A stretch of DNA of 54,920 nucleotides from an uncultured Clostridia bacterium (GTDB lineage Bacteria; Bacillota; Clostridia; Christensenellales; Borkfalkiaceae), in contig CANQCA010000001.1 of the NCBI GenBank assembly GCA_947589585.1, positions 1 through 54,920 on the forward strand, read 5' to 3'. Shown piece by piece: positions 4,304 through 8,531 of the stretch. Numbering within the stretch: position 1 is the first letter of the stretch; every line of letters starts with the position of its first letter. The notes under the pieces are model-generated. The model saw nothing but the letters and a program-made list of their open reading frames with translations, searched no databases and was not told the origin of the DNA. Position numbers and translations under genes: made by a program.

Positions 4304-4972
4304 ATGAACGAATTGGATGAACTGACAGGTCCCGAGATGAAAGAGGGCAACGATGTGAAGGTCATCGCCAAACAGCTCCCCGTGACGATCGGCACTGGTT
4401 CGAAGGTCTTCGATATCATCTGGTGGTTCCTGCCGCCCGTCATCGGCGGGATCATCTGGATGATCATGAAGCGCAAGGCACGCAGCTATTTCTTGCAGCT
4501 CCAGCAGAAGATCCAGCACGACGCCTCGCAGATCGACAACTACCTCGAACAGCGCGTGCAGATCCTCAAAAACTGCGCCCGCCTGCTCGACAAGGCGATC
4601 GACCTCGACAAGGATACCTTCGAGAAGATCGCGGCGTACAGGAGCAAGGTGAGCCCCGACGGCGACGAAGCGCGCAATGCGTATGCGCGGGAAGTGGGCT
4701 CGCTCGCCCGCTCGGTAAACATCGCCTTCGAGAATTATCCCGAGCTTCGCGCGCACCAGGAGATCGCCGACGCCATGCAGCAGAATTCCTATCTGCAACG
4801 CGAGATCACCGCTGCCCGCGAGGTGTATAACGATACCGTGAACACGTGGAACCGCGACGTTTACGCTTGGCCCACCAAACAGATCGTGGCAGCCAAGGCG
4901 GGCTATACGACGCGCATTCCCTTCATCGCCGACGAGGAGACGAAGGAGGCTGCCCGCGGCACCTTCTTCTGA
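4304..4972 (+). CDS. LemA family protein
   Basis: N-terminal TM (FDIIWWFLPPVIGGIIWMIM), then a LemA-like helical region (NIAFENYPELRAHQ...REITAAREVYNDTVNTWNRDV). AGGAGA lies upstream. Confidence 0.8.
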   Translation: MNELDELTGPEMKEGNDVKVIAKQLPVTIGTGSKVFDIIWWFLPPVIGGIIWMIMKRKARSYFLQLQQKIQHDASQIDNYLEQRVQILKNCARLLDKAIDLDKDTFEKIAAYRSKVSPDGDEARNAYAREVGSLARSVNIAFENYPELRAHQEIADAMQQNSYLQREITAAREVYNDTVNTWNRDVYAWPTKQIVAAKAGYTTRIPFIADEETKEAARGTFF

Positions 4973-5117: not shown

Positions 5118-6951
<1,834 letters not shown>

Positions 6952-6953
<2 letters not shown>

Positions 6954-6973
6954 TACTATGCCACGCATAATAC
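6952..6973 (+). repeat. copy a of the recurrent motif AGTACTAT-N6-CATA (AGTACTATGCCACGCATAATAC)
   Basis: Overlaps the typA stop codon TAG (6951-6953). Arms GTACTATG / CATAATAC form an imperfect palindrome. Confidence 0.8.
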
Positions 6974-7002
6974 AATGCTGATCCCATAAATTTTATTGCA
7001 AC

Positions 7003-7046
7003 AAACCCGAACCGAGCCGCATTTGGCAGGTTTCGGGTTTTTCTTT
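7003..7046 (+). terminator. intrinsic terminator after typA
   Basis: AAACCCGAA ... TTCGGGTTT stem with an inner GCC/GGC helix, followed by TTTTCTTTT. Confidence 0.75.
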
Positions 7047-7067
7047 TGAAAAGTGATTGCGACGTCC

Positions 7068-7096
7068 TTGACATATCCTTGCCTTCGTGGTAAAAT
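7068..7096 (+). promoter_or_regulatory. sigma-A type promoter with extended -10, TTGACA-17-(TGg)TAAAAT
   Basis: -35 at 7068-7073, TGG at 7088-7090, -10 at 7091-7096. Confidence 0.75.
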
Positions 7097-7102
7097 TAAA
7101 AT

Positions 7103-7329
7103 GCCAAACAAACTTTATATCCAAGAAAAGGAGGGCACGGTTTTTTCATGTAAATCTAAAATATAAGGGGAGGAGTATTTCCTGCTCATACATTGCTCAT
7201 ATTAGAATTTGGCAGAACTGCAAATTCCAATATATGGACGTTACTACCGTGCCGTATATAAAGTTTGTTTGGCGACAACCGGAGTTTGCGTTTTGTATGC
7301 GCTGACTTCGGTTGGCGCATTTTTATTTT
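7103..7329 (+). promoter_or_regulatory. structured leader or candidate invertible segment upstream of the LRR lipoprotein gene
   Basis: 18-bp perfect inverted repeat at 7103-7120 / 7256-7273 enclosing 135 bp. A second complementary pair is GGCACGG 7134-7140 / CCGTGCC 7247-7253. A terminator hairpin at 7297-7320 (UUCG loop) plus T-run 7321-7329 ends 5 nt before the SD AAGGAGA. Confidence 0.6.
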
Positions 7330-7346
7330 ATCAAGGAGAAATTGTT

Positions 7347-8531
7347 ATGAAAAAGTGGCTCACAGCGATCTTGATGATCGCATTTACTGTTTGTCTTTGC
7401 CTCGGACTTTCGGCATGCGAAAATTTCGGATCGTCCAACGACGGTCCCTCGGGCGGTTCGAGCAATACGCCGAAAGAGGACAACGACGGCACATTCATTT
7501 ATTCGGGCGCTTCGATCAAAGCAGCGAATACGTCCATTTCGGGCGATATCGTCATTCCCGCCTCGCATAACGGGGCGCCCATTGATACCATTCCCGAAGC
7601 GGCATTCAAGGGTTGCAACGGAATCACTTCGATCACCGTTCCCGAGAGCGTGACTTCGATCGGCGAAGGTGCATTTAACGGGTGTTCGCTCCTTCGGAGC
7701 ATTACATTGCCTTTTGTAGGAAGGCAGAAGGGAAATACGGGGAAATCTGCTTGTTTCGGATATATTTTTGGAACAAATTCTTATCAAGGCGGTACAAAAG
7801 TAAACCAGCATTACGATTCGGGCGTTGTAGCATCTTTTTATATTCCTTCAACCTTGAGAACTGTTACAATTACTAATGAAACAACAATTGGCAAATCTGC
7901 ATTTGAAAATTGCTCAATGCTGACAAAAATCGACCTGAATGATGGAGTTTTACAAGTCGGATCAGGTAGCTTTTCGGGATGCTCTAAGATTGAGGAAATC
8001 AATTTACCGAGTATTACAATTATTCCTTCGTCTCTCTTCAGCGGTTGCGTTTCTTTAAGTAATTTTACTATCAATGATTCCGTGGATACGATTGAATCAA
8101 GTGCGTTCTATGGGTGTACGGCTCTCGCTTCTATCAATTCCAAGGTAGTAGGAGAATTTATTATTCCAGACAGCGTGACCTCGATCGGCGAAGGCGCGTT
8201 TAACGGTTGCGCTCTTCTTCGGAGCATCACGCTACCCTTTGTTGGGAGCGGAAAGGGGAATACAGGGAGAGCCGCATGTTTTGGACATATTTTTGGGACA
8301 AGTTCATATCAAGGCGGTACACAAGTGAACCAGCATTACGGTTCCGGCGTTGTAGCATCTTTTTGTATTCCTTCAACTTTGAGAACTGTTACAATTACGA
8401 ATGAAACCATGATAGGACAAGGAGCATTCCAAAACTGTTCCATGATACAGACTCTTAAAATCAATTCCGCGGCGCAGGGCAATATCGGAACGTATGCCTT
8501 CAATGAAACGGTAACGCCGACGTGGTTCTAA
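7347..8531 (+). CDS. BspA-type leucine-rich-repeat surface lipoprotein
   Basis: MKKWLTAILMIAFTVCLCLGLSAC is a signal peptide with a lipobox. Repeated ...IPxSVTSIGEGAFxGCxxL... units fit LRR_5/BspA type. SD AAGGAGA lies at 7334-7340. Track ORF 7209 was trimmed. Confidence 0.85.
   Translation: MKKWLTAILMIAFTVCLCLGLSACENFGSSNDGPSGGSSNTPKEDNDGTFIYSGASIKAANTSISGDIVIPASHNGAPIDTIPEAAFKGCNGITSITVPESVTSIGEGAFNGCSLLRSITLPFVGRQKGNTGKSACFGYIFGTNSYQGGTKVNQHYDSGVVASFYIPSTLRTVTITNETTIGKSAFENCSMLTKIDLNDGVLQVGSGSFSGCSKIEEINLPSITIIPSSLFSGCVSLSNFTINDSVDTIESSAFYGCTALASINSKVVGEFIIPDSVTSIGEGAFNGCALLRSITLPFVGSGKGNTGRAACFGHIFGTSSYQGGTQVNQHYGSGVVASFCIPSTLRTVTITNETMIGQGAFQNCSMIQTLKINSAAQGNIGTYAFNETVTPTWF
7647..7922 (+). 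repeat. intragenic duplication, copy 1 (about 275 bp)
   Basis: Encodes VTSIGEGAFNGCSLLRSITLPFVGRQKGNTGKSACFGYIFGTNSYQGGTKVNQHYDSGVVASFYIPSTLRTVTITNETTIG..., nearly identical to copy 2. Confidence 0.85.
8172..8447 (+). repeat. intragenic duplication, copy 2 (about 275 bp)
   Basis: Encodes VTSIGEGAFNGCALLRSITLPFVGSGKGNTGRAACFGHIFGTSSYQGGTQVNQHYGSGVVASFCIPSTLRTVTITNETMIG..., offset 525 bp from copy 1. Confidence 0.85.

Follow-up and report, generated by a model that had tools for sequence, protein, structure and literature searches.

The perfect inverted repeat that lies between a promoter and a surface-lipoprotein gene in this uncultured Clostridia bacterium almost certainly belongs to an RNA-level element rather than to a DNA switch. 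We propose that positions 7103–7330 of the window, the whole stretch of 54,920 nucleotides that was analyzed, encode a conditional-termination leader for the downstream gene, with attenuation in cis as its main role, and we give this reading a probability of about 0.6. An earlier, sequence-only reading had left two explanations side by side: (a) a DNA inversion switch resembling that of cwpV and (b) a structured attenuator leader or sRNA. All scored copies of the element have a single orientation and repeat arms that covary and include G·U pairs, and the RNA is a covarying multi-helix structure with a conserved antiterminator that competes with the terminator. Because the single orientation is found together with covarying arms and interior helices, explanation (a) is unsupported, whereas (b) is supported. 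The element represents what is apparently an undescribed, widespread family of structured leader RNAs of gut Clostridia that share a conserved conditional terminator.

Layout of the promoter, leader RNA, and lipoprotein gene

The features of the locus are listed here in the order of transcription.

7068–7096, + strand: sigma-70-type promoter, TTGACA-17-(TG)TAAAAT, 11/12 consensus matches plus the TG extension
7103–7120, + strand: 5' strand of helix P1, GCCAAACAAACUUUAUAU, from the inverted-repeat search and covariation across members
7121–7133, + strand: internal loop J1/2 with a GGAGG motif, which is kept in the rabbit-gut clade only
7134–7141, + strand: 5' strand of helix P2, GGCACGGU, with 5/8 pairs changed on both sides in alignment A1
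7167–7187, + strand: small hairpin P3, GGGGAGGAGUAUUUCCUGCUC, at a three-way junction, 91% paired
7194–7202, + strand: 5' strand of the P4 lower stem, paired with 7232–7240
7205–7228, + strand: P4 apex hairpin, GAAUUUGGCAGAACUGCAAAUUCC, whose loop and 3' strand (7215–7228) are complementary to the tail
7232–7240, + strand: 3' strand of the P4 lower stem, paired with 7194–7202
7246–7253, + strand: 3' strand of P2, ACCGUGCC, paired with 7134–7141
7256–7273, + strand: 3' strand of P1, AUAUAAAGUUUGUUUGGC, the exact reverse complement of 7103–7120
7274–7296, + strand: 3' tail, GACAACCGGAGUUUGCGUUUUGU, the putative switching strand, with two alternative conserved partners
7297–7330, + strand: intrinsic terminator, AUGCGCUGAC-UUCG-GUUGGCGCAU plus U-run, 97% paired with 5 covarying pairs
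7334–7338, + strand: Shine-Dalgarno (SD) sequence AGGAG ahead of the ATG at 7347
7347–8531, + strand: ORF of a BspA-type LRR lipoprotein, 394 aa, lipobox LGLSAC, Pfam LRR_5 at E = 7.8e-45

Much of this layout had been called in the sequence-only reading, and most of it stands. The near-consensus promoter is recovered by a promoter scan, and the claimed 18-bp perfect inverted repeat, GCCAAACAAACTTTATAT, is present as 7103–7120 against 7256–7273, verified as exact reverse complements with 135 nt between the arms. When up to three mismatches are allowed, the 18-mer occurs in the 54.9 kb at these two sites only, where shuffles expect 0.01. The second complementary pair that had been reported inside the repeat is there as well, but it is 8 bp long (7134–7141 / 7246–7253) and not 7 bp. 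The intrinsic terminator claimed ahead of the gene is borne out as a 10-bp stem with a UUCG loop (7297–7320), followed by TTTTTATTTT, and its helix is conserved; the lipobox and the LRR_5 match likewise confirm the BspA-type LRR lipoprotein gene at ATG 7347. It had also been argued that transcription from the 7068 promoter must cross this terminator to reach the gene, in agreement with which the scan finds no promoter-like site on the + strand between the terminator and ATG 7347.

Transcription is predicted to start at G7103, which would place the 5' end of the RNA at the P1 5' strand. The gene upstream of the leader in the window encodes TypA/BipA, and just after its stop codon there is a hairpin, AAACCCGAACCGAGCC / GGCAGGTTTCGGGTTT plus a T-run (7003–7046), that is likely the TypA terminator; the leader promoter at 7068 would therefore begin a separate transcription unit. 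Farther upstream, ARAGORN reports a tRNA-Ser(tga) at 4530–4600 (− strand) inside a LemA-family ORF (4304–4972, + strand), a call on which the Rfam tRNA model is silent and which is probably a false positive. The LRR lipoprotein itself contains a long internal duplication, at residues ~118–195 and ~294–371, with the pattern SITLPFVG..KGNTG..ACFG.IFGT.SYQGGT.VNQHY.SGVVASF.IPSTLRTVTITNET.IG..AF.NCSM.

The RNA from 7100 to 7335 has a predicted folding energy of −79.5 kcal/mol (z = −6.9 relative to dinucleotide shuffles), and its MFE fold lacks the terminator, having instead a competing hairpin formed by 7276–7291 with 7299–7314. P4, at about 22–25 bp, is roughly as long as P1 and P2 combined (about 25 bp); were it folded back at the three-way junction, it would bring its apex close to the site where the tail exits P1. 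A start-stop mini-ORF is found at 7130–7153, where GGAGG is followed 13 nt on by AUG-UAA; an AUG with 0–4 codons occurs in 19 of 22 rabbit-clade copies and is missing from distant members, many of which have no GGAGG motif in J1/2 either. A mini-uORF (7130–7153) or a STAB-SD-like stabilizer was rejected as the core function, being conserved in the rabbit-gut clade only.

Conservation and covariation across the family

Relatives of the element were collected in two surveys with orientation-neutral baits, the 18-mer and a tail motif. One genome per species was scanned with the 18-mer, such that either orientation was detectable, and 48 loci were returned. Of these, 21 come from MAGs of uncultured gut Clostridia, mostly from rabbit, that carry the whole arrangement in the same order: −35/−10, GCCAAAC..., interior, ...GTTTGGC, GACAAYNGGRGTTTGC, the terminator with its CTTCGG loop, T-run, SD, and ATG. 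The metagenome survey used a tail-motif scan followed by nhmmer, with a bait, TGGCGACAANNGGNGTTTGC, that lies outside the repeat, and it yielded about 60 far more divergent copies on metagenome contigs, many of them from the human gut. The invariance of the 17 bait bases of TGGCGACAANNGGNGTTTGC within the metagenome set is by construction; the 22 genome members, retrieved through the P1 18-mer, carry the common tail independently of the tail bait, and the apex, terminator, promoter, and 5' end are also conserved even though they lie outside the metagenome bait. The −35/−10 pair stands at a constant distance from GCCAAAC in almost all family members, with a spacer of variable sequence. A scan of viral contigs with the tail pattern gave two matches, at least one of which is the contig of a metagenome match that fails the family profile, and exact-protein look-ups with the LRR protein and TypA found no second assembly of the source strain.

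Structure was assessed on MAFFT alignments with anchor-based pair counts, judged by shuffles and slid controls. For the 22 closest sequences, P1–P4, the apex, and the terminator together have 94% of cells paired and 19 two-sided pair changes; none of 500 shuffles matched the pairing values, and slid controls reached at most 47%. Across the 72 unique members, P1 positions 1–9 (GCCAAACAA) are near-invariant and positions 10–15 covary, with UA 34, CG 25, AU 10, and GC 2 at position 11 and UA 29, AU 21, and CG 12 at position 14. The length of P1 ranges from 11 to 21 bp among members. The frequent G·U pairs suggest that this strand is selected as RNA. Farther inside the RNA, the P4 lower stem is 97% paired with compensatory changes in 6 of 9 pairs, the P4 apex is among the best conserved blocks of the family, and P3 in distant members takes the form GGGAUA..UAUACCC followed by a U-run. 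The sequence-only reading had proposed looking for helix covariation in related upstream regions and for the repeat in relatives that carry the LRR gene: P1 and the interior helices do covary, and the whole unit is present in the 21 MAGs.

The element is tightly associated with the gene that follows it. An orthologue of the LRR lipoprotein (57–77% identity) comes directly after the element in at least 15 of the 21 related species, and the upstream neighbor changes while the LRR gene stays, with TypA upstream only in the window and at locus L016. Wherever enough downstream sequence is available, nearly all members place the RNA between a promoter and, on the same strand, an ORF without its own promoter, and in most the T-run is 16–40 nt from the start codon. 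Of 48 downstream proteins from members outside the rabbit clade, about 21 carry a lipoprotein signal peptide and 27 an N-terminal hydrophobic segment. Among the Pfam families of distant members LRR_5 recurs, accompanied by the Listeria-Bacteroides repeat (Flg_new), zinc-ribbon membrane proteins, DUF4234, SHOCT, a DrrA-like ABC ATPase, and a YpsA-SLOG protein. The cassette stands ahead of lipoprotein, surface, and membrane-protein genes in many gut Clostridia, which probably makes these genes an envelope regulon under coordinate control.

Only one copy of the RNA is found within the 55-kb window. Elsewhere, nine copies are 90–95% identical to one another from the −35 box to the terminator U-run, and they have unrelated flanks and differing downstream genes, from which it appears that the cassette is multi-copy. 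A single metagenome assembly, JAEIGA01, supplied five of the nine; there the near-identical cassettes (L079, L088, L090, L113, and L103) precede unrelated genes, namely those for a zinc-ribbon membrane protein, two lipoproteins, a DUF4234-like protein, and a membrane protein. This set suggests multi-copy leaders in concerted evolution within one genome or population.

Three further loci depart from the common layout. L119 (13568–14692, − strand) contains three tandem RNA units, each with a TTGTAA-17-TATACT promoter and a terminator, ahead of a gene of the YpsA-SLOG family; in units 2 and 3, P1 differs in sequence and the sensor domain is shorter. At L116 (1207–1256, − strand), a tail-plus-terminator module (..CGGAGUUUGCGUUUUU plus a hairpin with a CUUCGG loop) that has no sensor comes directly after a protein-coding gene. 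At L098 (6240–6300, − strand), a tail-like sequence shares the bidirectional terminator hairpin downstream of a tmRNA gene (6419–6784, − strand) and lies on the opposite strand. The tails of L116 and of the second and third L119 units are more divergent, and the family is therefore wider than sampled. Together, the tandem units and the L116 and L098 modules may mean that the RNA, or its tail, does more than control the next gene in cis.

The tail and its two alternative partners

The tail of the leader is complementary to two other parts of the same RNA. In the antiterminator, 7276–7286 and 7288–7291 pair with 7304–7314 and 7299–7302. The pairing of this helix in 63 sequences is 96%, where slid controls reach no more than 49%, and one of its column pairs varies among A-U, G-U, and G-C. 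The predicted hairpin energies in the window are −23.0 kcal/mol for the antiterminator and −13.5 kcal/mol for the terminator. At full length, the MFE is −79.7 kcal/mol with the antiterminator and −72.1 kcal/mol when the terminator is enforced, a cost of 7.6 kcal/mol. The antiterminator is the MFE structure of the tail-plus-terminator segment in 60 of 72 members, and on average it lies 4.3 kcal/mol below the terminator alone.

The other partner is the P4 apex. Tail positions 7281–7294 are complementary to the apex loop and 3' strand (7228–7215), and this helix is 95% paired across the same number of sequences, 63 (slid controls at most 57%), which exceeds the 85% pairing of the apex hairpin itself. 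At column pair 177/254, U-A is replaced by C-G in nine sequences, at the only tail position that was free in the search pattern; the covariation of the apex-tail helix consists of that single column, and with P1 formed, the apex-tail pairing would be a pseudoknot. The tail's two conserved partners, the P4 apex and the terminator, are mutually exclusive. A nested fold without P1, in which the 5' end pairs with the apex 5' strand and the apex 3' strand with the tail, was considered and rejected: it is calculated to lie 21 kcal/mol above the MFE and is unlikely to be a full equilibrium state. Conservation is highest in the expression platform, that is, the tail and terminator, and lower in the putative sensor, a distribution that is unusual for metabolite riboswitches and fits better with an element recognized by a protein or an RNA.

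A mechanism consistent with these pairings would run as follows. Transcription from the promoter at 7068–7096 would produce a leader of ~225 nt (7103–7330), in which the 18-bp repeat would form helix P1 and close a rod or three-way-junction domain, P1–P4, with the conserved tail immediately after it. In the ON state, the tail would pair with the 5' arm, the loop, and part of the 3' arm of the terminator, forming the antiterminator and allowing readthrough into the LRR gene. In the OFF state, the tail would pair instead with the P4 apex loop and 3' strand, leaving the terminator free to stop transcription at about 7329. A putative effector acting on P1–P4, whether a small molecule, a protein, or an RNA, would presumably select the partner of the tail and so set the expression of the lipoprotein. 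We infer both the ON/OFF direction of the switch and the existence of an effector.

Extended to the family, the same model would describe a portable promoter-sensor-tail-terminator cassette, an unrecognized class of riboregulator in which the tail toggles between apex and terminator and envelope genes are placed under one signal. We put this generalization forward tentatively, as a possibility that on balance we doubt; the signal may be a new riboswitch ligand or a dedicated RNA-binding protein.

Alternative explanations and known systems

The cis leader is not the only way to read a compact transcription unit of this kind. It might be an independent, abundant sRNA of ~225 nt, possibly multi-copy and trans-acting, for which readthrough into the downstream gene is secondary; we regard this as rather unlikely in its own right, and it is compatible with the leader model, the two not being mutually exclusive. 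Such an sRNA could act through its P4 apex (AAAACGCAAAUUCC-like) by pairing with tail modules on other transcripts; another possibility is that it binds or titrates a protein. The element does have its own consensus promoter and strong terminator, its three tandem units in L119 each carry both with no ORF between them, sensor-less tail modules occur after a protein gene (L116) and, in tail-like form, after the tmRNA gene (L098), and copies that are 90–95% identical have different flanks and downstream genes, with five of the nine compared coming from one assembly. A free-standing sRNA nevertheless fits poorly with an element that is nearly always on the same strand as, and directly upstream of, the next gene, with downstream genes that have an SD, lack a promoter of their own, and mostly begin 16–40 nt past the U-run, and with the functional coherence of those genes, which encode lipoproteins and envelope proteins; a conserved antiterminator would moreover be purposeless in a simple sRNA gene. 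Tails behind a protein gene and, in tail-like form, a tmRNA gene mean that the leaders might therefore act in trans through the apex, and L119, L116, and L098 may point to an sRNA or trans role, or to a protein that recognizes the tail. If that were true, leader apices acting on other "tailed" terminators would constitute an RNA-RNA termination network.

The remaining alternatives are far less probable than either of these. Surface proteins are typical targets of invertons, and a perfect 18-bp repeat around 135 bp, placed after a promoter and ahead of a surface-protein gene, is what a switch of the C. difficile cwpV/flgB type would present, in which a trans-encoded recombinase flips 7121–7255 and alters termination in the 5' UTR. 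We nevertheless find this explanation barely credible: all 22 genome-derived copies are collinear over their full length (in assemblies, not reads), and the apex motif is forward in 63 of the 72 unique copies, reverse in none, and unscored in nine. The arms covary, contain G·U (G·T) pairs, and vary from 11 to 21 bp among members, the interior hairpins P2 and P4 have strand-specific G·U pairs and compensatory changes, and the tail, which lies outside the segment, is complementary to the interior apex in the observed orientation only. A perfect inverted repeat in a 5' UTR can thus be the closing helix of a structured RNA, and scoring it as an inverton needs evidence for both orientations. A MITE or other selfish repeat (Correia/REP-like) that happens to sit in the intergenic region would account for terminal inverted repeats and for 90–95% identical copies with unrelated flanks in gut metagenomes (five of nine from one assembly), but we consider it very improbable, since the similarity passes the repeats, extending from the −35 box up to the terminator U-run, the copies are oriented toward the downstream gene at a short fixed distance, the helices covary with the structure maintained, and the 55-kb window has a single copy. 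It is also improbable, if slightly less so, that a known RNA was missed by the models, such as 6S RNA, a T-box, a c-di-GMP or other riboswitch, a STAB-SD-like stabilizer, or a mini-uORF. The rod-like fold closed by a long helix, and the GGAGG followed by an AUG and early stop in 19 of 22 rabbit-clade sequences, would suit members of this group; against them, most distant members lack the GGAGG/AUG motif, the RNA has no two-sided central bubble like that of 6S RNA, and scans with Rfam 15 were negative. Its families, 6S, T-box, c-di-GMP-I/II, ydaO, raiA, and EAR among them, gave no relevant match at E ≤ 10 (positions 6500–8000 of the window) or at the gathering threshold (whole window), and none at E ≤ 1 in ten other members, which agrees with the earlier statement that no known riboswitch or T-box signature was recognized. 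By eye, the tail also lacks the signatures of ANTAR (hexaloop A1/G4), RAT (UGGN bulge), and T-box (T-box sequence) systems.

Taken together, the evidence favors the conditional-termination leader. Lipoproteins and BspA-type LRR proteins are the main surface and host-contact molecules of gut Firmicutes, and to our knowledge, the regulation of such surface proteins in uncultured Clostridia is essentially unknown. A family that is widespread and strongly constrained, each copy having a promoter and a candidate termination switch, offers a testable handle on a surface-protein regulon. The RNA is also a candidate orphan riboswitch or riboregulator, unusual in that its platform would pair the apex with the tail, and the compact regulatory cassette may be of use for engineering in Clostridia. 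We found no description of this RNA in the literature, including Weinberg 2017 (PMC5737381), nor did we find it in Fremin & Bhatt 2021 (PMC8040213) and the first 200 of its 408 supplementary files; it could be among the unnamed candidates of large screens.

Several known systems share parts of this arrangement. Like the RecV-dependent cwpV and flgB switches of C. difficile, the locus has inverted repeats in a 5' UTR past the promoter, a surface gene, and termination as its proposed output; it differs from them in its one orientation, in a repeat that covaries as an RNA helix, and in an interior that is a conserved structured RNA. With the attenuation leaders and riboswitches of Firmicutes (T-box, purine/SAM), it has in common its site in the 5' UTR, a structured sensor closed by P1, a terminator just before the SD, and an alternative hairpin that sequesters the 5' arm of the terminator. 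Unlike typical riboswitches, however, it is matched by no Rfam family, is conserved more in its platform than in its sensor, and has a switching strand complementary to a distal apical loop instead of a P1 strand; the promoter is also part of the conserved cassette, with tandem units each having their own. The c-di-GMP-I and -II riboswitches are likewise multi-copy cis RNAs with terminators upstream of surface genes in Clostridia, but there is no Rfam match to GEMM-I/II and the architecture is different. Near-identical copies with their own promoter and terminator, in tandem at L119, recall Listeria LhrC1-5 and Vibrio Qrr, in comparison with which the present RNA is larger and more structured, has an antiterminator, and is almost always fused to a promoter-less gene. 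Finally, the RNA resembles 6S RNA in its length of roughly 200 nt, its rod-like form, and the placement of its 5' and 3' regions in a long closing stem, whereas it lacks a bubble resembling an open promoter, has a three-way junction and a 3' extension with a terminator, and is multi-copy, linked to genes, and without a match to RF00013.
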